A DNA stretch of 40,726 bases, taken from Candidatus Doudnabacteria bacterium RIFCSPHIGHO2_12_FULL_48_16 (GTDB lineage: Bacteria > Patescibacteriota > Doudnabacteria > UBA920 > O2-02-FULL-48-8). A model generated the notes under the pieces. That model was not told where the DNA came from. It searched no databases and saw nothing but the letters and a program-made list of their open reading frames with translations. Each line of letters starts with the position of its first letter. Positions within the stretch are counted from its first letter, which is position 1. Below, piece after piece: positions 14,830 to 33,263 of this stretch. The stretch lies in assembly GCA_001780035.1 (NCBI GenBank), contig MFEY01000008.1, positions 43,371 to 84,096 on the forward strand, read 5' to 3'. Made by a program: the position numbers and the translations under genes.

Positions 14830-15774
14830 ATGGACAACGAAATAACCTCAATAATTCCAAATTCGACTCAAATCCCGCACCTCATTATCCGGGAGTGGAT
14901 GCCACTCCTGAGCGATGTAGAGCTGAGGATTCTTCTTGTCGTTGCAGACCAGACGTTGGGATGGATTGAGGACCCTGAAACAAAACGCCGCAAAGAGAAA
15001 GATTGGATTAGTCAGGGGTTGCTGATGAGGAAAATAAACCGAAGCGATCGAGCCATTCAAAACTCACTCAAGAGATTGGTAGATGATCTGAGGATTATTC
15101 AGGCTCACGACGAAGCGGGTGAACTCCTAGACTCGCCACAAAAACGTATGAAATGCGGAGGAAAAATCTTTTACCGCCTGAGCCTTAAACGGCCTCAACA
15201 ACCCACCCCCGAAATAAGTTCGGGGGCAGAAAAAACCTCAAACTTTTTACCTCCCCCGAAAAATCTTCGTGCGAAAAATTTTCGGGCTACAAAAGAAACC
15301 AGTATTACAAAAGATAAGTCCTTCGGACAAGCAAGCTTGGTCCAAGAATTTAAAAGGGATGTGGACAAGCCTGTGGATAAACCAACCCTACCAACGCGTT
15401 ACTTCTTCGGAAAATTCTCTCAGCTCACCTGGGGCATTCGGCATACTCGGCCGATCTTCGTGAAATTCAAAGACGGCAATCTGCTCAAGCATGCACTCGG
15501 CCACTTAACAGAATTCCAACTTGAGCTGGAGCTCGTGTGGTTTTTGCAAAACAAACGAGAGATGAAGCCGACAATCGGTGCGGCTTTATGCAAAGAAGTC
15601 ATCGAAGATTTTATACAAGCCAGTTTCAAGGAGTACGGATTCTACAACACGCTAGAGCGAACCGCACTGCAGTATAGCAGGCGCGAACCGGAAGAAGTCC
15701 GTGGCGAAACTGCCGCAATGGTCGAAGCGCTGAAGAAATTGAAAGACTCATTTTCAATGAGACAAAGCATATGA
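14830..15774 (+). CDS. Phage replication initiator, RepO-like N-terminal winged-helix
   Basis: IPHLIIREWMPLLSDVELRILLVVADQTLGWIEDP...WISQGLLMRKINRSDRAIQNSLKRL matches the pattern of the lambda O N-terminal domain family. Confidence 0.55.
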   Translation: MDNEITSIIPNSTQIPHLIIREWMPLLSDVELRILLVVADQTLGWIEDPETKRRKEKDWISQGLLMRKINRSDRAIQNSLKRLVDDLRIIQAHDEAGELLDSPQKRMKCGGKIFYRLSLKRPQQPTPEISSGAEKTSNFLPPPKNLRAKNFRATKETSITKDKSFGQASLVQEFKRDVDKPVDKPTLPTRYFFGKFSQLTWGIRHTRPIFVKFKDGNLLKHALGHLTEFQLELELVWFLQNKREMKPTIGAALCKEVIEDFIQASFKEYGFYNTLERTALQYSRREPEEVRGETAAMVEALKKLKDSFSMRQSI

Positions 15775-17006
15775 GACACATCGATTTATTTTCAGGCATC
15801 GGCGGATTCGCTTTGGCGATCGAAAAGGTGTGGCCGAATTCCGATCACATCTTTTGCGACAACGATTCTTACTGTCAAAAATTACTAAAACTAAGATTCC
15901 AAAATTCAAAAATCTATGGCGACATCAAAGAAATCAAATCTATTACCGACTCCGACTGGCTCGGACTACAAAAGCAGGGGCAAAAACAGCAAACAAATAG
16001 GAGTAGACAATTATTTAAAGTCGATATCCTCACAGGAGGATTCCCATGCCAGCCATTCTCTCAAGCTGGAAAAAGACGGGGGACAAGTGATGACCGTTAT
16101 CTCTGGCCGGAAATGCTTCGAATCATTCGACTCACGAATCCGAGATGGGTCATCGCTGAAAACGTGCGTGGGTTACTTACTATGCAAAACGGGTTGGTAT
16201 TCGAACAAGTGTGCGTTGACCTGGAAGCCTCCGGCTACGAAGTCCAGCCGCTTATTATTCCAGCTGTCGCCGTCAACGCTCCGCATCGAAGGGACCGGAT
16301 CTGGTTTATTGCTCACGCCATCAGCGATCCAGCCTATCGAAAGAAAAAAAGCGGAAAGCTATCTAAAGCGCCAAATAAACAGAAACAAGACAGGTCGCAA
16401 TACAGTCCCGCCCGGCAATCTTTACGAGCAACTCTTGGCGGGGGGAGCAACCGATCTAAGGAAGACATCATTATGGCCCGCGCTTTTAGGAACACCGAAA
16501 GCTCAAGACAGTCGAGCAGCAATGAGAGATCGAGGAAAACACAATATGGGGGAACAAGTTCAGGAAGCTATCAACGCGCTACTTCCCACGCCACGGGTAA
16601 GCGAGGTCGAGGGGTCACCAGTAAAGAACGCGGAATTAAAGAATGGGCGATGGAGCAGGATGAATCAAAAGGGCGTGAGATTTGGAGTAAAGGTGAAAGA
16701 CGTGTTGGCAGTATTGCCCACGCCACGAGCGGGGAATCCGGGAAGCAGGCCAAACAAAAAAGGTGGAAAAATTTTGAACGAAGAAATTGGGAAAGGAACT
16801 GGCTTGAAGTTGCAACCGAGCTTTGTGGAATGGATGATGGGCTACCCGCAAAACTGGACGAATTTGAATTATCAAAATCAAGACATCGGATAGAGAGACT
16901 TAAGGCTCTAGGAAATGCAATCGTGCCGCAAGTCGCGGCAAGGATCATGGAAGCGATAAAAAAGACAGAAGAAAACCTTGGCCTCACTCGAAGCATTCGG
17001 AATTGA
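15771..17006 (+). CDS. DNA (cytosine-5)-methyltransferase (frame A); the central region is atypical
   Basis: Motif I is DLFSGIGGF, motif IV is GGFPCQPFSQAGKRRG, motif VI is ENVRGL, motif VIII is APHRRDRIWFIA and motif X is LKALGNAIVPQV. The roughly 170 codons between motifs VIII and X are K/R/S/G/Q/E-rich and poor in hydrophobic residues. Confidence 0.8.
   Translation: MRHIDLFSGIGGFALAIEKVWPNSDHIFCDNDSYCQKLLKLRFQNSKIYGDIKEIKSITDSDWLGLQKQGQKQQTNRSRQLFKVDILTGGFPCQPFSQAGKRRGTSDDRYLWPEMLRIIRLTNPRWVIAENVRGLLTMQNGLVFEQVCVDLEASGYEVQPLIIPAVAVNAPHRRDRIWFIAHAISDPAYRKKKSGKLSKAPNKQKQDRSQYSPARQSLRATLGGGSNRSKEDIIMARAFRNTESSRQSSSNERSRKTQYGGTSSGSYQRATSHATGKRGRGVTSKERGIKEWAMEQDESKGREIWSKGERRVGSIAHATSGESGKQAKQKRWKNFERRNWERNWLEVATELCGMDDGLPAKLDEFELSKSRHRIERLKALGNAIVPQVAARIMEAIKKTEENLGLTRSIRN
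15916..16893 (+). CDS. 325-codon +1-frame ORF nested in the C5-MTase gene (frame B); possible TRD-bearing or overprinted product
   Basis: The ATG sits in an A/T-rich context without a Shine-Dalgarno site, like other starts in this window. The frame has five spaced [LV]L[PLG]TP motifs and a C-terminal FVEWMMGYPQNWT. Its composition is protein-like where frame A is low-complexity. Confidence 0.4.
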   Translation: MATSKKSNLLPTPTGSDYKSRGKNSKQIGVDNYLKSISSQEDSHASHSLKLEKDGGQVMTVISGRKCFESFDSRIRDGSSLKTCVGYLLCKTGWYSNKCALTWKPPATKSSRLLFQLSPSTLRIEGTGSGLLLTPSAIQPIERKKAESYLKRQINRNKTGRNTVPPGNLYEQLLAGGATDLRKTSLWPALLGTPKAQDSRAAMRDRGKHNMGEQVQEAINALLPTPRVSEVEGSPVKNAELKNGRWSRMNQKGVRFGVKVKDVLAVLPTPRAGNPGSRPNKKGGKILNEEIGKGTGLKLQPSFVEWMMGYPQNWTNLNYQNQDIG

Positions 17007-17102: not shown

Positions 17103-17384
17103 ATGGAACAAGATCAGAATTTACTCGAAACGATTCTACGGGCAATCGTCAATCACCCTGAACAGGTGGAAGTGACAAGGCACGTAGACGAGATGGGCGT
17201 GCTCCTCTCGGCGAAGCTTGGCGAGGGCGATGCGGGAATCGTGATCGGCAAAGAAGGACGGGCTATCAAAGCCATCCGTTCGGTCATGAACCTCGTCGGC
17301 CGCAGAAGCAAAGCTCGTGTCAGTGTTCGGCTCAACGTCCCGGATCTGCCTCGCAATGAGGGATCAGAGTCGGCCTCGGCCTAA
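17103..17384 (+). CDS. KH-domain RNA-binding protein (UPF0109/KhpA-like)
   Basis: 93 aa. ILRAIVNHPEQVEV...AGIVIGKEGRAIKAIRSVMN contains the GxxG KH signature (GKEG). Confidence 0.7.
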   Translation: MEQDQNLLETILRAIVNHPEQVEVTRHVDEMGVLLSAKLGEGDAGIVIGKEGRAIKAIRSVMNLVGRRSKARVSVRLNVPDLPRNEGSESASA

Positions 17385-18211: not shown

Positions 18212-19483
18212 ATGGAAAAAAATACGAAGGCAATAAAAATTACAGACCTCAAACACCCGGCCTACAACCCGCGGGAGATAAAGCGCGAGGATATCGACGC
18301 ATTAAAACGATCGATTGAAAGATTCGGATTGCGTGGACTCATCACGGTTAACAGCAGCAAGGGACGAGACGGTTTCATTGTCGGTGGCAACATGACTATC
18401 ATGGCTCTCAAGGAGCTGGGATGGGAAACAATACCGAAAGAGAATGTGGATTTGGTAGACATGCCGGAGAAGGAAGAAAAAGCCTTGAGCCTTGCCTTAA
18501 ACAAGATCGCTCAACGGCGCGACTGGAATGACGAGAAGCTGGCTGAACTCATGGTCGAGCTCAACCATTCTGATTTTGACCTGACTCTCACAGGCTTCAA
18601 CGAAGTGGAGATCAGCAACCTCCTCGACAGCCAAATGCTCGAAGAACCGGATGAAGAAGATAAAACTCCCGAAGAAGAATACGAGGAAATAAAAAAACCA
18701 GAGTCAAAATACGGTGAAGTCTACAAGCTCGGCCGACACAGGCTTATGTGCGGAGATGCAACCAAGATCGAAGACATCAAGAAATTACTCGGCACAGTCA
18801 AGGTGGACATGGTCTTTACCGACCCGCCTTACAACGTGGCTCACGTTAGTCACGAAAAACGCGGGAAGTTTCCAACTGAGCAAGGAAAGATTCTCGGCGA
18901 TCAGCAGAGCCAAGAAGACTTCGAAGCCTTCAGCGAAAAAGTATTTGCCAACTACCATGAAATCCTGAAGCCAGGCGCAACGATGTATGTCTGTACGGGC
19001 TATACCAGCTACCCGCTGTGGTACTACGAAATGATGAACGCCGGTTTTGAATTCTCATCGACAATCGTATGGGTTAAACCATCTTTTGCTATTGGCTGGG
19101 GCGACTACAAAAAACAATACGAACAGGTCATGAAAGCGAAGCGGAGTAAAGGCAAGACCAAAGCCCAGCCGCTTATGTATGGGTGGAAGAAGGGAGAGAG
19201 ACACTTCTTCTACGGCGATAACAACGAGAGCGACGTATGGGATATGCCACGCAAAGCGATTACCAAGATGACTCACCCGACCGAGAAACCGGAGTGGCTC
19301 ATTATGCGCGCCATAAAGAACTCAAGCCGAGTCGGTCACGTCGTGGTCGACTTCTTCGGTGGATCAGGAAGCACACTATTCGCGGCAAACAAATTGGAAC
19401 GCACTTGCTATTTGCTTGAACTCGATCCGCGTTGGTGCGACGTGATTCGCAATCGCTGGGAGAAGGTAAAAGTGAAAGGTTAA
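18212..19483 (+). CDS. ParB-like N-terminal domain fused to a DNA methyltransferase (N6-adenine/N4-cytosine, beta class)
   Basis: The N-terminus has PAYNPREI...SIERFGL...ALKELGW (ParB/Srx-like). Motif IV is FTDPPYNV and the C-terminal motif I is VDFFGGSGST. Confidence 0.8.
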   Translation: MEKNTKAIKITDLKHPAYNPREIKREDIDALKRSIERFGLRGLITVNSSKGRDGFIVGGNMTIMALKELGWETIPKENVDLVDMPEKEEKALSLALNKIAQRRDWNDEKLAELMVELNHSDFDLTLTGFNEVEISNLLDSQMLEEPDEEDKTPEEEYEEIKKPESKYGEVYKLGRHRLMCGDATKIEDIKKLLGTVKVDMVFTDPPYNVAHVSHEKRGKFPTEQGKILGDQQSQEDFEAFSEKVFANYHEILKPGATMYVCTGYTSYPLWYYEMMNAGFEFSSTIVWVKPSFAIGWGDYKKQYEQVMKAKRSKGKTKAQPLMYGWKKGERHFFYGDNNESDVWDMPRKAITKMTHPTEKPEWLIMRAIKNSSRVGHVVVDFFGGSGSTLFAANKLERTCYLLELDPRWCDVIRNRWEKVKVKG

Positions 19484-19522: not shown

Positions 19523-20086
19523 ATGACAAAGCCCGCACTCACCACCTCAAAGATGCCAGGAGAAACTGAACAGCAGTACACTGCGTGGCTTTTGTATTGC
19601 GAAGCCGGAAGCCTTCGGAAGACCGAGGGGCTATGGAACAGGGTTGGGCAAACCTTGGGTGAAGCTGGGGTGGAATTTGCCGACCGGCTCGGTAAGAAAC
19701 CAAGTGATACCACCCTAGAAACGTGGTCAAAGAAGTACCGTTGGGTCGAACGGAAAGACCTCAAGCTCACCGAGGACTTGGAAGGTCTCCGTAAAAAGGC
19801 ACAGGAGATCAAACAGAAAAAAGTATTTGTTATCGGCGAAGTCTTCTGGGAAAAGCTACAGGCCCTAAAGAAGCAGATTAAAAAAGGAGAAGGCGCAACG
19901 GTGGATGAGATTAAGAAACTGTGGGAAATGTTCAGAACCGAAATGGGAGAGTCACTCGGCAAGCACGAGCTGAGCATCAACGAAGACGAACAGAAGCCTC
20001 CGACTCCTGAGCAGGAGGAGCTTGGTCAAGCGATCGACGAAACAATCAAAGCCTTCTATGGACGAAAAGGAAAAGCAAAAAAGTAG
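19523..20086 (+). CDS. Putative terminase small subunit
   Basis: The call rests on its position directly upstream of, and overlapping, the large terminase gene. An N-terminal HTH-like segment ETEQQYTAWLLYCEAGSLRK is followed by a coiled-coil region. Confidence 0.45.
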   Translation: MTKPALTTSKMPGETEQQYTAWLLYCEAGSLRKTEGLWNRVGQTLGEAGVEFADRLGKKPSDTTLETWSKKYRWVERKDLKLTEDLEGLRKKAQEIKQKKVFVIGEVFWEKLQALKKQIKKGEGATVDEIKKLWEMFRTEMGESLGKHELSINEDEQKPPTPEQEELGQAIDETIKAFYGRKGKAKK

Positions 20087-21599
20087 CATCCTATATTGGA
20101 TCAAGCAGAACGAAATAAAAAGCGAGAGTGGTGACCCGATCGAGTTCGCCGACCACCGCTTCATGCTGGATATTTATTCCGACCGTACACCAATACAGGT
20201 CATACGCAAAGGGTCGCAGATTGGAGCGAGCACGATGGAAATCCTGCGAGCTGTACATGCTGCGCGCTTTTGGGGCATCAACCAAATTTATACACTCCCA
20301 ACCGTGGATGACGTGGCCGAGTTCGTAAAAAGCAAAGTGAACCGCATCGTAAAAGTGAATCCCTGCATGCTCGAAGGAGTAAGCGGAAAAGACGTAGACT
20401 CGGTCGAGCAAAAACAGGTCGGCAAGTCATTCCTGTTCTTCAAGGGAACCTACACGGAAAAGGAAGCAATCATGCTTACATCCGATCGTAACATCCACGA
20501 TGAGCTCGACAAGTCCAAACCAGAAGTCATTCGAGACTTCACCTCCCGCATGGGCTTCTCAAAAATACGAAGCCAACATTACTTCTCGACCCCAACCATT
20601 CCAGACATGGGCGTCGACAAACTATTCGGACAATCGGATCAGAAACATTGGCGATTCAATTGTCCTCGTTGCAACTACGAGCAGCACATGGATTGGGAAA
20701 AGAACGTCGACCGTGAACGCAGAATATACGTCTGCCAAAAATGCCACGGTGAAATTACATCAAGGCATGTAAACGACACAGGCTGGTGGGAAGCTAGGTA
20801 TCCGGGAGAACCAATAAGCGGCTACTGGATAAGCCAAATGATATGCCCGTGGCGAACTGCTGCCGACTTGCTCACGGAAGAAGCCAACGCCGAAGACCAG
20901 CAATACTTCTACAACTTCGTGCTGGGCCTGCCTTATATAGCATCGGATCAGAAGATTCCGCAGAGTCTATTCCTTCGCAACGTAACGAATGAAGAAGTGG
21001 AAGCATCGGGCTGGAACGTGATGGGAGCGGATACTGGAGACGAAAATCATATTGTTATCGGCAACGCGAAAGGAATATTTTGGATCGGAAAAATTAAAGA
21101 CAGGCCGAACAAGACACGCTGGGAGTACATGGCCGAGCTGATTCAATTCTACGACGTGCGGGTTTGCGTGATTGATGCAATGCCCTGGACGGAAGAAGCA
21201 TTGCGTCTCGCCCGCAAATTCCCGTACCGCGTCTACGTTAATTTCTACAAAGATGACCCGAAGATGTTAGAAGTCGTTCGATGGAATGATGAGAAAGAAG
21301 AAGACGAAAAGCCATTCGAAGAAGAAGTAAAAGTGCTCACCTCCCGCAATCGAATCATCGACGACACAATATCATCCCTCCGCCGAGGAGAAATAAAGTT
21401 TGCCATGAAGTCAGATGACCCAACATTCAAGATGCTCATCGAGCACGCGCAAACAATGTATGCGCGAACTGTCACAAACCAATATGGTCAGGAAAAGCGC
21501 GAATGGGAGTCGACCACTGGCGTCGACCACGCATGGCATGCGCTCCTGTACTGGCATGTCGCTTTCAAAAAGAGACTCAAGTATGAACCAAACAGCTGA
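20058..21599 (+). CDS. Terminase large subunit, GpA-like
   Basis: The ATPase region is RKGSQIGASTMEIL and the zinc ribbon is CPRCNYEQ...CQKCHGE, as in GpA-type terminases. The start could be 20022 or 20058. Confidence 0.7.
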   Translation: MDEKEKQKSSILYWIKQNEIKSESGDPIEFADHRFMLDIYSDRTPIQVIRKGSQIGASTMEILRAVHAARFWGINQIYTLPTVDDVAEFVKSKVNRIVKVNPCMLEGVSGKDVDSVEQKQVGKSFLFFKGTYTEKEAIMLTSDRNIHDELDKSKPEVIRDFTSRMGFSKIRSQHYFSTPTIPDMGVDKLFGQSDQKHWRFNCPRCNYEQHMDWEKNVDRERRIYVCQKCHGEITSRHVNDTGWWEARYPGEPISGYWISQMICPWRTAADLLTEEANAEDQQYFYNFVLGLPYIASDQKIPQSLFLRNVTNEEVEASGWNVMGADTGDENHIVIGNAKGIFWIGKIKDRPNKTRWEYMAELIQFYDVRVCVIDAMPWTEEALRLARKFPYRVYVNFYKDDPKMLEVVRWNDEKEEDEKPFEEEVKVLTSRNRIIDDTISSLRRGEIKFAMKSDDPTFKMLIEHAQTMYARTVTNQYGQEKREWESTTGVDHAWHALLYWHVAFKKRLKYEPNS

Positions 21600-31676: not shown

Positions 31677-33263
31677 ATGAGTAAAGACTATTCACAATTG
31701 AATGTAACCAAAGAGCAAGAGCGTGCGGAATTGCATCGTGCTATTTGGCAGATCGCCAATGACTTGCGCGGAAGCGTAGATGGTTGGGATTTCAAGCAGT
31801 ACGTACTCGGTATACTCTTTTATCGTTTCATTAGTGAAAATTTGACCAGCTATATAAATGCTGATGAACGCCGTGCGGGTAAAAAAGATTTTGACTACGC
31901 TACACTTTCCAACAAAGAAGCAGAATTCGGTAGAGCTGATACCGTCAAAGAAAAAGGTTTTTATATTTTGCCAAGTGAGCTTTTTGTGAATGTCAGGAAA
32001 AATGCTCGCAATGACGCCAACCTCAACGAAACCCTTACAGCCGTTTTTCGTAATATTGAAAATTCTGCGAAAGGCGCAAACAGCGAAGATGATATCAAAG
32101 GCTTGTTTGATGACCTTGATGTCAACTCTAATAAATTAGGAAGTACGGTAGAAAAACGAAACCATAAACTCACGAAGCTGTTTGAATCCATCGGTGATCT
32201 TCGCTTGGGTAACTACTCCGACAATACCATAGACGCTTTCGGCGATGCGTATGAGTTCCTCATGACCATGTACGCTTCAAACGCAGGCAAGTCCGGAGGC
32301 GAGTTTTACACCCCACAGGAAGTCAGCGAACTTTTGGCGGAAATCACCACTGTTGGCAAAAAAGAAGTGAACAAGGTGTATGACCCGGCTTGTGGTTCTG
32401 GTTCGTTACTTCTCAAATTTGCCAAGGTACTCGGCAAAGAAAATGTTCGGCAGGGCTTTTTCGGGCAGGAGATCAACCTCACCACCTACAATCTCTGCCG
32501 TATCAATATGTTCCTGCACGACATCAACTACAATAATTTTGATATTGCTCACGGCGATACACTCGTTGACCCGAAACACTGGGATGATGAACCGTTTGAC
32601 GCAATCGTTTCCAATCCGCCATATTCTATTCACTGGGAGGGCGACGCCAATCCGCTTCTTATTAACGATCCGCGTTTTTCACCGGCGGGAGTGCTTGCTC
32701 CAAAGAGTAAGGCTGACCTCGCTTTTACTATGCACATGCTTAGCTGGCTTTCTACCAGTGGCACGGCCGCGATCGTTGAATTCCCGGGCGTCCTCTATCG
32801 TGGTGGTGCAGAGCAGAAGATTCGTAAATACTTGATAGACAACAACTATGTCGATGCGGTTATCCAGCTACCGCCCGATCTCTTTTTTGGTACTACTATT
32901 GCCACTTGCATCATCGTGCTTAAAAAGAGCAAGAAAGATAATAAAACACTTTTTATCGATGCCTCTGCTGAGTTTGCTCGTGGTGGCAACAAGAATAAAT
33001 TGAGCGAGACGAATCGCTTAAAGATTTTGGAAGCATTCAGCACTCGTAAAGACGCAAAGTATTTTGCCAAGCTCGTGGACAATAAAGCCATTGCTGAGAA
33101 TGACTACAATATTGCCGTTTCAAGCTATGTCGTGGCAGAAGACACTCGCGAGGTGGTAGACATTACTGAGCTGAATACGAGAATAGCTGGCATCGTCACA
33201 CGGCAACAGGAACTCCGCACCTCGATTGATGACATTGTGGCTGATATTGAAGGAACAAAATAA
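31677..33263 (+). CDS. hsdM: Type I restriction-modification methyltransferase subunit
   Basis: The N-terminal HsdM_N pattern is LHRAIWQIANDLRGSVDGWDFKQYVLGILFYRFIS. Motif I is DPACGSGSLL and motif IV is SNPPYS. Confidence 0.95.
   Translation: MSKDYSQLNVTKEQERAELHRAIWQIANDLRGSVDGWDFKQYVLGILFYRFISENLTSYINADERRAGKKDFDYATLSNKEAEFGRADTVKEKGFYILPSELFVNVRKNARNDANLNETLTAVFRNIENSAKGANSEDDIKGLFDDLDVNSNKLGSTVEKRNHKLTKLFESIGDLRLGNYSDNTIDAFGDAYEFLMTMYASNAGKSGGEFYTPQEVSELLAEITTVGKKEVNKVYDPACGSGSLLLKFAKVLGKENVRQGFFGQEINLTTYNLCRINMFLHDINYNNFDIAHGDTLVDPKHWDDEPFDAIVSNPPYSIHWEGDANPLLINDPRFSPAGVLAPKSKADLAFTMHMLSWLSTSGTAAIVEFPGVLYRGGAEQKIRKYLIDNNYVDAVIQLPPDLFFGTTIATCIIVLKKSKKDNKTLFIDASAEFARGGNKNKLSETNRLKILEAFSTRKDAKYFAKLVDNKAIAENDYNIAVSSYVVAEDTREVVDITELNTRIAGIVTRQQELRTSIDDIVADIEGTK

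Follow-up and report, generated by a model that had tools for sequence, protein, structure and literature searches.

What supplies target recognition in a C5-cytosine DNA methyltransferase gene whose centre does not read as a recognition domain, and what is the second long reading frame that lies open on the same strand within it? This question is posed by a locus in a window of 40,726 nucleotides (the whole stretch of DNA that was analysed), where a 411-aa ORF, frame A, encloses a 325-aa ORF in the +1 frame, frame B, both as first described; frame B spans 79% of frame A. The original prediction, read from the letters alone, placed the missing target-recognition domain (TRD) in frame B and offered dual coding, recoding or a split enzyme as explanations. 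It listed five [LV]L[PLG]TP motifs in frame B, four of which are where it put them (15940, 16306, 16579 and 16711), while the third begins at 16483 and not at 16480; the A7 tract and FVEWMMGYPQNWT of frame B (16822-16860) were correctly placed. No Shine–Dalgarno sequence is visible for frame B when the sequence is read directly. The features of the locus are as follows, in coordinates of the window.

15771..17006, plus strand: frame A ORF, 411 aa, the alpha-like subunit; filler interrupts its C5-cytosine methyltransferase large domain
15771..16340, plus strand: N-terminal catalytic part of frame A, with motifs I, IV, VI and VIII
15783-15809, plus strand: frame A motif I, DLFSGIGGF
16035-16061, plus strand: frame A motif IV, GGFPCQPFS
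16158-16166, plus strand: frame A motif VI, ENV
16287-16298, plus strand: frame A motif VIII, RRDR
16331..16805, plus strand: frame A filler, about frame A residues 188-345, K/R/S/G/E-rich, unconserved and stop-free; its DNA also encodes the repeat region of frame B
16894..17006, plus strand: C-terminal part coded in frame A only, containing motif X
16899-16934, plus strand: frame A motif X, LKALGNAIVPQV, with LGNAIVPQV at 16908-16934 and GNA at 16911-16919
15916..16893, plus strand: frame B ORF (beta-like subunit), 325 aa, +1 relative to frame A and wholly nested in it
15916..15918, plus strand: frame B start codon, made by the frame A motif III codons TAT-GGC (..IYGDI..)
15940, plus strand: N-terminal LLxTP-type repeat of frame B
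16078..16320, plus strand: N-terminal core of frame B (frame B residues 55-135), overprinted on frame A motifs IV-VIII, with the sequence ..MTVISGRKC..GSSLKT..WYSNKCALTWK..RLLFQLSPS..GSGLLLTP
16306..16797, plus strand: frame B variable region, with LLxTP repeats at 16306, 16483, 16579 and 16711
16344..16350, plus strand: A7 tract, read in both frames (RKKK in frame A, ERKKA in frame B)
16798..16860, plus strand: motif IX-like end of frame B, TGLKLQPSFVEWMMGYPQNWT; frame A reads these bases as ..LCGMDDGLPAKLD

The methylase encoded by frame A

The assignment of C5-methyltransferase motifs I, IV, VI, VIII and X to frame A was borne out by a PF00145 match that covers residues 1-398 (E=9e-49). In alignments of 51 and 65 sequences, the motif residues show little or no variation, G381 and N382 of motif X are invariant in the alignment of related loci, and the N-terminal part of frame A is 36-66% identical across these loci. 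A Foldseek search with frame A matched M.HhaI (E=4e-11) over about 185 columns, which correspond to the large domain only. The AF2 model of frame A likewise comprises a confident N-terminal large domain and a C-terminal helix, with pLDDT of about 30 for residues 193-367.

Frame A similarity extends into the filler in only two of 84 loci. Among close relatives, substitutions follow the frame A pattern again in the C-terminal part that is coded in frame A only (0.314 at codon position 3). Between motifs VIII and X, the frame A polypeptide has neither a conserved variable region (TRD) nor motif IX. The central region of frame A is not a TRD: it is unconserved, evolves in the codon phase of frame B and is predicted to be disordered.

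Openness of the two frames and selection on them

Related loci were gathered by similarity to frame B, so the openness of frame B in this set is partly an effect of sampling, whereas that of frame A is not. Frame B is open and in the +1 frame in 83 of the 84 loci; those with this nesting include phages of Paenibacillus, Bacteroides and Lactobacillus as well as isolate phage genomes from different studies, and every one of the 84 loci with a frame B homologue also carries the catalytic block of frame A. Stop codons counted over 80 loci number 0 for frame A, 15 for frame B and 607 for the third frame in the central region, and 3, 2 and 688, respectively, in the N-terminal overlap. The 15 central stops in frame B come from only five loci with long centres, and in the cases checked frame B ends well before the C-terminal block of frame A. 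Within the window alone, 13 stops interrupt the third sense frame in the central region and another 7 in the N-terminal overlap, and 2-8 occur in the antisense frames; across the loci, the third and antisense frames are rich in stops.

A caveat raised at the outset, that the region is poor in T and stops may be scarce for this reason, is right as to composition (16% T in 16321-16840; the window also contains open antisense ORFs, 81-141 aa long), yet this is not enough to explain the open frames, as the stop-rich third frame indicates. When codons were shuffled synonymously so that the frame B protein was kept, 271 stops were expected in the frame A filler against 0 observed (76 loci, 28.7 kb); for frame B, synonymous-codon shuffling gave 187 stops expected against 1 observed in the catalytic overlap. 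The openness of both frames is far beyond chance, and T-poor composition does not account for it.

Suppression of synonymous variation, which the original prediction had named as a check on the overlap, was also found: the identity of third positions, taken at four-fold residues that are themselves identical, rises from 0.32 in the parts coded in frame A only to 0.53 in the overlap. Third positions of frame A are 93-100% invariant at six of seven conserved codons among residues 160-168 (P164, 84%), which lie under RLLFQLxPS of frame B, and again at residues 355-363, under WMMGYPxxW; DDG in frame A is forced by TGG-ATG-ATG-GG in frame B. Over the N-terminal core of frame B, +1-frame identity reaches 0.446 against 0.306 expected from conservation of frame A alone (z=82). 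In the central 475 nt of four close relatives, in which the genes are identical in length and free of indels, 43 nucleotide differences produce 41 changes in frame A and 4 in frame B, with substitution rates of 0.323 at A1/B3 positions versus 0.026 at A3/B2 positions. The variable region of frame B is under strong purifying selection in frame B, and both frames are kept by selection.

The apparent exceptions among the loci are mostly accounted for, those of L004 and L070 excepted. L045 proved on inspection to be no exception, L043 looks like an indel at a G-run, and L055 has a TGA at an invariant Gly that fits genetic code 25. In L004, frame B is intact and a stop cuts into frame A just ahead of the catalytic Cys, which hints that frame B might sometimes act without frame A.

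The frame B family and its single-chain relatives

Frame B matches phrog_1008 (E=2.5e-23; frame B residues 38-319 on profile positions 40-283 of 329), which PHROGs labels 'DNA methyltransferase', and the homologue search proposed for it returned more than 300 proteins (best E=1e-158). In the library searched, the family amounts to 33,820 cluster representatives, 15,136 of them at E<=1e-10, and at least 385 loci occur in IMG/VR. Pfam holds no model for the family, and a PDB sequence search with the frame B profile gave no match even at E<=10. The 'g50 internal gene' of Paenibacillus larvae phages (e.g. REDBUD_51) is a frame B homologue with the same +1 nesting in a methylase gene. Both this name and the phrog_1008 label are annotation only; a genomics paper on P. 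larvae phages yielded no analysis or function for the 'g50 internal gene', and the literature that was searched contained no earlier description of the nested gene in phages.

The number of LLxTP repeats differs between frame B homologues, many of which begin M-x-T-S-..-LLPTP. The start codon of frame B is kept in the four close relatives, and Tyr49 of frame A, present in 44 of 65 loci, is encoded by TAT in 77% of these.

An example of a methylase with LLPTP repeats in a single chain is gp71 of Mycobacterium phage IrishSherpFalk (MK016496). Its catalytic block is like that of frame A (32% identity over frame A residues 1-225), and it shares the LLPTP repeats, an EWMMGWP motif IX and motif X in the same order, but all of these parts lie in one reading frame, unlike in the A/B locus. 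Using hhalign, the C-terminal half of frame B was aligned with the in-frame variable region and motif IX of gp71 at a probability of 98.4% (E=1e-14); gp71 residues 196-358 pair with the frame B variable region, and ARLNPAFPEWMMGWPTGW of gp71 pairs with the motif IX-like end. Frame B ends in LKLQPSFVEWMMGYPQNWT, which is motif IX-like, and motifs I-VIII and X all lie in frame A. When the motif IX end of frame B was joined to motif X of frame A, the PF00145 score of this fragment rose from 14.3 to 24.3 bits and the match extended to profile positions 283-324. The gp71 alignment, the frame B homologues, the nesting in 83 of 84 loci and a frame A centre that is not a TRD together uphold the claim that the recognition-domain information lies in the other frame.

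In single-chain mycobacteriophage relatives, the +1 frame over motifs IV-VIII contains 39 stops versus 48 expected, which is not significant (these genomes are GC-rich). An overprinted N-terminal core was considered for these relatives and set aside, as the hhalign value of 95% may merely reflect conservation of frame A. Single-frame relatives were also sought with an A-B-A chimera in a collection of 5.8 billion proteins, where the best 120 matches were all of frame A or frame B type; of the matches with '100% coverage' that might have been single-frame enzymes, 16 were inspected and all 16 proved to be frame A products with a similar filler.

AF2 modelling of frame B alone (58-sequence alignment) gave a mean pLDDT of 59.6 and a pTM of 0.26, and owing to this low confidence the model was left out of the fold search. 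With such a model and no PDB match, the fold of frame B and its docking to frame A are predictions only. The N-terminal core of frame B is without counterpart in canonical methylases.

A candidate two-subunit enzyme and its precedents

From these sequence comparisons, we consider it probable that the locus encodes two polypeptides from one stretch of DNA, which together make up a single heterodimeric C5-cytosine DNA methyltransferase. Frame A (alpha) would supply the large catalytic domain, with motifs I-VIII in its N-terminal part and motif X in its C-terminal part, and its motif VIII side would be joined to motif X by about 160 residues of unconstrained, disordered filler, present solely because frame B is encoded in these bases. 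Frame B (beta) would start at the ATG inside motif III of frame A, dock onto frame A through its N-terminal core, hold all of the variable (target-recognition) region in the form of short LLPTP-type repeats, and end with motif IX just before motif X of frame A. Both proteins would be made and would bind each other, and only the complex would methylate DNA; for synthesis, association and complex-only activity, we draw on the experimentally characterised M.EcoHK31I.

With an alpha chain of 309 aa and a beta chain of 176 aa, M.EcoHK31I falls within the size range of the frame A/B family (e.g. Lc-Nu, 286 and 182 aa), and it, rather than the initially suggested M.AquI, is the closest precedent. This E. 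coli enzyme, a C5 methyltransferase with YGGCCR as its recognition sequence (Lee, Kam and Shaw 1995; Fung et al. 2006), is a heterodimer whose beta chain has its whole coding sequence inside that of alpha, read in a different frame. Activity depends on both chains, and beta associates less strongly with alpha when residues are deleted from its N-terminus (PMC2836561, PMC3404938). By this published description, the two systems are alike in that the second polypeptide lies wholly inside the first gene in another frame, and the control of association with alpha by the beta N-terminus fits a docking role for the frame B core, which, by analogy, probably docks onto frame A. They differ in that beta is much larger here (325 aa) and has the whole repeat-type variable region, and in that the region of alpha between motifs VIII and X is here unconstrained filler; whereas the literature puts the predicted TRD of M.EcoHK31I in alpha, the homologue of the gp71 variable region lies in frame B. 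M.EcoHK31I is moreover an E. coli enzyme, whereas the present locus is in a phage, and a tblastn search of frame B against plasmids gave 8 matches, none from E. coli.

M.AquI is also a C5 methylase that is naturally divided into two assembling polypeptides (PMC3404938), but the cut there is linear and the ORFs are consecutive, with motifs I-VIII along with a portion of the variable region in alpha and the remainder and motifs IX and X in beta. In the present locus, by contrast, motif X is in frame A, downstream of the frame B stop, and the second ORF is fully nested. The type of architecture is itself known; the apparent novelty lies in how large the family is and in a nested frame that holds the entire variable region.

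Three other readings of the locus were weighed. That it is an artefact or a pseudogene, with homopolymer or assembly indels splitting an ordinary gene and a second frame arising from T-poor composition, has next to no probability: the low T content (16%), the open antisense ORFs of 81-141 aa and the apparent indel at a G-run in L043 would fit such an origin, yet 83 of 84 independent loci, drawn from different studies and including isolate phage genomes, share the two-frame layout, four close relatives have genes of identical length without indels, the third and antisense frames are stop-rich across loci, and the synonymous-site and codon-phase signals reflect selection in both frames. The comparative data effectively refute this reading, and a sequencing error as the source of the two frames is not supported. 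It is also very improbable that recoding yields a single A-B-A chain, through a +1 shift after motif VIII (for example, by slippage at A7) and a -1 shift after motif IX. The A7 tract does sit just past motif VIII, an in-silico chimera of this kind has the canonical motif order and the higher-scoring motif IX and X fragment (24.3 bits versus 14.3 for frame A alone), and single-chain relatives with the same motif order, such as gp71, exist. However, the whole-protein PF00145 score, which had been proposed as a comparison, hardly moves with the chimera (168.0 vs 167.1). Recoding would require neither openness of frame A between the shift sites, where 0 stops are found against 271 expected in 76 loci, nor openness or conservation of frame B upstream of the first shift, yet frame B has both and owns the conserved N-terminus M-x-T-S..LLPTP. 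The A7 tract is an A6 tract in the close relative L120, where both ORFs are intact, the run is broken in P0001 and P0124, and more distant relatives lack it; it is probably incidental, and the idea of slippage at this site finds no support. As already remarked in the original prediction, there is no obvious site for a return shift, and a conserved slippery site for it was not seen.

Less improbable, but still unlikely, is the combination of a frame B that is real but unrelated to the methylase, serving independently in DNA binding, regulation or anti-defence after an origin by overprinting, and a frame A that methylates alone, either with relaxed specificity or lacking a TRD. Consistent with such independence, the N-terminal core of frame B is conserved on its own account and has no canonical methylase counterpart, L004 keeps frame B intact with frame A broken before the catalytic Cys, and the frame B model is not a confident globular domain. 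Set against this are the homology of the C-terminal half of frame B to a variable region and motif IX that lie covalently within a single-chain enzyme, the lack of conserved sequence between motifs VIII and X of frame A, and the presence of the frame A catalytic block in all 84 loci with a frame B homologue. In M.HhaI and M.HaeIII, specific DNA contacts are made by the small domain (PMC3404938), and the alpha chain of M.EcoHK31I is inactive alone (PMC2836561).

The two-subunit methylase would reside in a phage with several other methylases, where its role is likely the protection of phage DNA from host restriction. The putative M.EcoHK31I-like nested architecture is very widespread in phages, and it is quite possible, as we tentatively propose, that a very large, unannotated phage family has the nested-frame methylase as its standard architecture, with an expandable LLPTP-repeat recognition module in the nested chain and a docking domain overprinted de novo on motifs IV-VIII. 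If so, purifying selection would act simultaneously on two sense frames of about 1 kb of DNA, few same-strand overlapping gene pairs in dsDNA phages would be longer or more deeply conserved, and specificity, through the number of repeats in frame B, would be free to change while the catalytic chain need only avoid stop codons. Because gene callers bar long same-strand overlaps, one of the two proteins is dropped or called 'hypothetical' in very many phage and metagenome annotations, with frame A products annotated as complete methylases although they have no recognition domain; prediction of specificity from frame A alone would fail for the family, as the determinants lie in frame B. As an instance of dual coding, the locus is unusually clean and deeply sampled, comprising a part coded in frame A only, a part coded in frame B only with passive frame A filler, and a truly dual part, and may be useful for testing overlapping-gene detection and for studying new protein parts that arise by overprinting. 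It would also give context to M.EcoHK31I, which is used as a naturally split scaffold for targeted methylation.

Two overlapping ORFs in a phage methylase locus

The window comes from a phage genome. Two long sense ORFs of its + strand, termed frames A and B, have about 1 kb in common.

Selected features of the window
14830-15774: O-like replication initiator, directly upstream of frame A
15771-17006, + strand: frame A ORF, 411 aa
15916-16893, + strand: frame B ORF, 325 aa, +1 relative to A
18212-19483: ParB-N and methylase fusion (phrog_498, E=3e-122)
20022-21599: large terminase
31677-33263: protein matching methylase families (phrog_6380, phrog_13671) and phrog_2713 (unknown function)

Frame A encodes a C5-cytosine DNA methyltransferase (PF00145, E=9e-49; also phrog_363 and phrog_116), with motifs I, IV (GGFPCQPFS), VI (ENV) and VIII (RRDR) in residues 1-190 and motif X (LGNAIVPQV) close to the C-terminus. 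A Pfam search with frame B gave no match; residues 38-319 match phrog_1008 ("DNA methyltransferase", E=2.5e-23). The motif positions in the original prediction are correct apart from LLGTP, which lies at 16483 rather than 16480, a 3-nt slip. The ParB-N fusion and the 31677-33263 protein indicate that the C5 enzyme is not the only methylase of the phage: there is at least one more, and probably there are two.

The start of frame A overlaps the stop of the replication-initiator gene in an ATGA (15771-15774), which suggests translational coupling; no Shine-Dalgarno sequence is visible at the A or B start. Just downstream of the methylase, 17103-17384 encodes a 93-aa KH (KhpA/B-type) protein, syntenic in the related loci L118-L121. 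A KH protein also follows the methylase, at a distance of a few genes, on the contig of the database protein P0014, which carries a Cpn60 chaperonin gene as well.

Conservation of the nested frame

Frame B is a real, widespread family that is always nested in the same way. More than 300 homologues, hardly any of them with a Pfam domain, occur in a large protein collection (E-values down to 1e-158), and a profile search covering 1.84 billion cluster representatives returned 33,820 at E<=1e-3, 15,136 at 1e-10 and 3,035 at 1e-30. Among isolate phage genomes, tblastn places B within genes annotated as methylases, in Bacteroides phages and in 54 records of Paenibacillus larvae phages. Some of the Paenibacillus records already list the homologue as "g50 internal gene"; the same nested ORF occurs in Lactobacillus phage Lc-Nu ORF40. 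We retrieved 80 IMG/VR loci by similarity to B and mapped B together with the N-terminal block, central part and C-terminal block of A using tblastn. The +1 offset of B from both A blocks holds in 83 of 84 loci, and wherever the gene is complete the A ORF encloses the entire B ORF. B is conserved over its full length among the mapped loci; the central 155 residues of A have tblastn matches in the two closest loci alone. The called ORFs of P0014 and P0019 start as frame A (MRHxDLFSGIGGF, motif I) and run into frame B without motif IV, which could reflect natural fusion or deletion, or an assembly indel.

Selection acts on both frames, as the stop codons show. Over 28.7 kb of central region in the 80 loci there are 607 stops in the third sense frame, 176-327 in the antisense frames, 15 in frame B and 0 in frame A; over 33.9 kb of N-terminal overlap the counts are 688 (third frame), 2 (B) and 3 (A). 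The openness of B in these counts is partly due to how the loci were found, whereas that of A, where its sequence is unconserved, is not a product of B-based collection. The 15 central stops in B are confined to five loci with long central regions; in those long-centre loci whose ORF ends were compared, B terminates well before the A C-terminal block. Shuffling synonymous codons, a control that keeps codon composition but not dinucleotide context, predicted 271 stops in the central part of A when the B protein was kept (0 observed), and 187 stops in B over the catalytic overlap when the A protein was kept (1 observed). Two antisense ORFs on the - strand, 16571-16996 (141 aa) and 16636-16881 (81 aa), are uninterrupted in the T-poor part of the window; given the antisense stops across related loci, they look like by-products of composition.

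Synonymous sites were compared in a 65-locus codon alignment of A, which is imperfect where divergent loci are gapped. Where a four-fold residue is identical, identity at the third position is 0.318 and 0.322 in the two parts that code for A alone, versus 0.528 across motifs IV-VIII. Third positions are 93-100% invariant at six of seven conserved codons in A residues 160-168 (P164, 84%), under RLLFQLxPS of B, and at six conserved codons in residues 355-363, under WMMGYPxxW. Identity in the +1 frame over A residues 86-187 is 0.446, against 0.306 expected from conservation of A alone (z=82); the A-only controls give 0.235 (0.226 expected) and 0.239 (0.230 expected).

Substitution rates by codon phase in four closely related loci of equal gene length (window, L118, L120, L121)
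Region: A1/B3; A2/B1; A3/B2
A-only N: 0.076; 0.031; 0.228
Central: 0.323; 0.073; 0.026
A-only C: 0.073; 0.105; 0.314

The A-only ends have the normal third-position excess of frame A. The central pattern is that of DNA which codes in frame B alone: the 43 nucleotides that differ there between the window and L118 replace 41 of 158 A residues but only 4 of 157 B residues. Together, these data define three regimes, namely A-only, truly dual, and B-coding with A merely kept stop-free. The truly dual part comprises the N-terminal core of B over motifs IV-VIII and the B motif IX over "DDGLP" of A, whose conserved "DDG" is forced by the non-degenerate TGG-ATG-ATG-GG of B.

Several loci appear to depart from this layout. 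L055 (IMGVR_UViG_3300029288_000382) has an in-frame TGA in A at 2524-2526, precisely where TGGFPCQ has its second, almost invariant Gly, and a second TGA where A would otherwise end; its B ORF ends at TAG. The pattern agrees with genetic code 25 (TGA=Gly, known from SR1/Gracilibacteria), so this phage may use the code of a recoded host instead of containing a pseudogene. L004 (3171-3176) and L070 (about 2494-2499), two divergent loci, both have six extra nucleotides (TAA-CCA and TAA-TCA) that separate GGFP from CQPFS in motif IV and put a stop in A shortly ahead of the catalytic Cys. B is intact in L004 (399 aa); in L070 it has a TAA, and an HNH-like ORF (CKSCHHEWH) replaces motifs I-III. The insertion could be a mobile-element footprint, a regulated stop or decay.

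Assignment of the two proteins and alternative readings

An AF2 model of A (51-sequence alignment) is confident for an N-terminal Rossmann-type domain and a C-terminal helix, with pLDDT ~30 for residues 193-367, and Foldseek matches it to M.HhaI and M.HaeIII across ~185 columns only, corresponding to the large domain. B alone was modelled poorly, and its profile found no sequence relative in the PDB. B ends in TGLKLQPSFVEWMMGYPQNWT; joining this to the motif X fragment of A lifted the PF00145 match from 14.3 to 24.3 bits and widened it to profile positions 283-324, consistent with a putative motif IX. The single-chain methylase gp71 of Mycobacterium phage IrishSherpFalk has the catalytic block, three LLPTP repeats, ARLNPAFPEWMMGWPTGW and IIGNGVVPQ all in one frame, and hhalign (probability 98.4%, E=1e-14) pairs gp71 residues 196-358 with the second half of B, which runs from GLLxTP to the C-terminus. 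The alignment and the PF00145 gain indicate that the C-terminal half of B is the variable region of the family plus motif IX. A would then correspond to the large domain, and B to the small domain plus an N-terminal core of its own.

Among single-chain relatives (L087-L117, mycobacteriophages), the LLPTP and motif IX segments are in differing frames in different phages. In L108 (439-1681), frame 0 stops after motif VIII and a +1 ORF has an N-terminus resembling that of B as well as LLPTP repeats, EWMMGWP and GNGVVP. Switching of the recognition module between frames seems to recur in this superfamily.

The original prediction allowed for dual coding, a split enzyme or recoding, the last by slippage at the A7 tract (16344-16350). 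A chain running from A into B and back into A is disfavoured: it would not need A to be open through the filler (the central part of A between motifs VIII and X, whose DNA encodes the LLxTP repeats of B), nor B to be open or conserved upstream of motif VIII, yet all of this is found. L120 has A6 instead of the A7 tract, and the run is interrupted in other relatives; B has its own conserved start, made by the motif III codons TAT-GGC of A (44 loci have Tyr at residue 49, and 77% of them encode it by TAT). The comparative data exclude a sequencing artefact or pseudogene. A function of B unrelated to the methylase is unlikely, since B is homologous to a recognition region that in gp71 is covalently linked to the rest of the enzyme, and A is without any such region.

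The best-supported reading of these sequences is that A and B would form a heterodimeric methylase. The precedent for the nested layout is M.EcoHK31I of E. coli, the single characterized enzyme with such an architecture. As summarized in PMC2836561 (citing Lee et al. 1995 and Fung et al. 2006) and PMC3404938, its activity needs both chains, and progressive N-terminal deletions of beta reduce alpha-beta association. By analogy, the N-terminal core of B, overprinted on motifs IV-VIII, may be the docking part. M.EcoHK31I, compared here by description, is said to have its "TRD in alpha", a possible difference from the present locus, where the variable region is in the nested B. No earlier description was found in the literature searched, within which the scale and phylogenetic breadth of this nested-frame family appear new, as does the placement of the whole variable region, in addition to motif IX, in the nested chain, with filler as its counterpart in the large chain.
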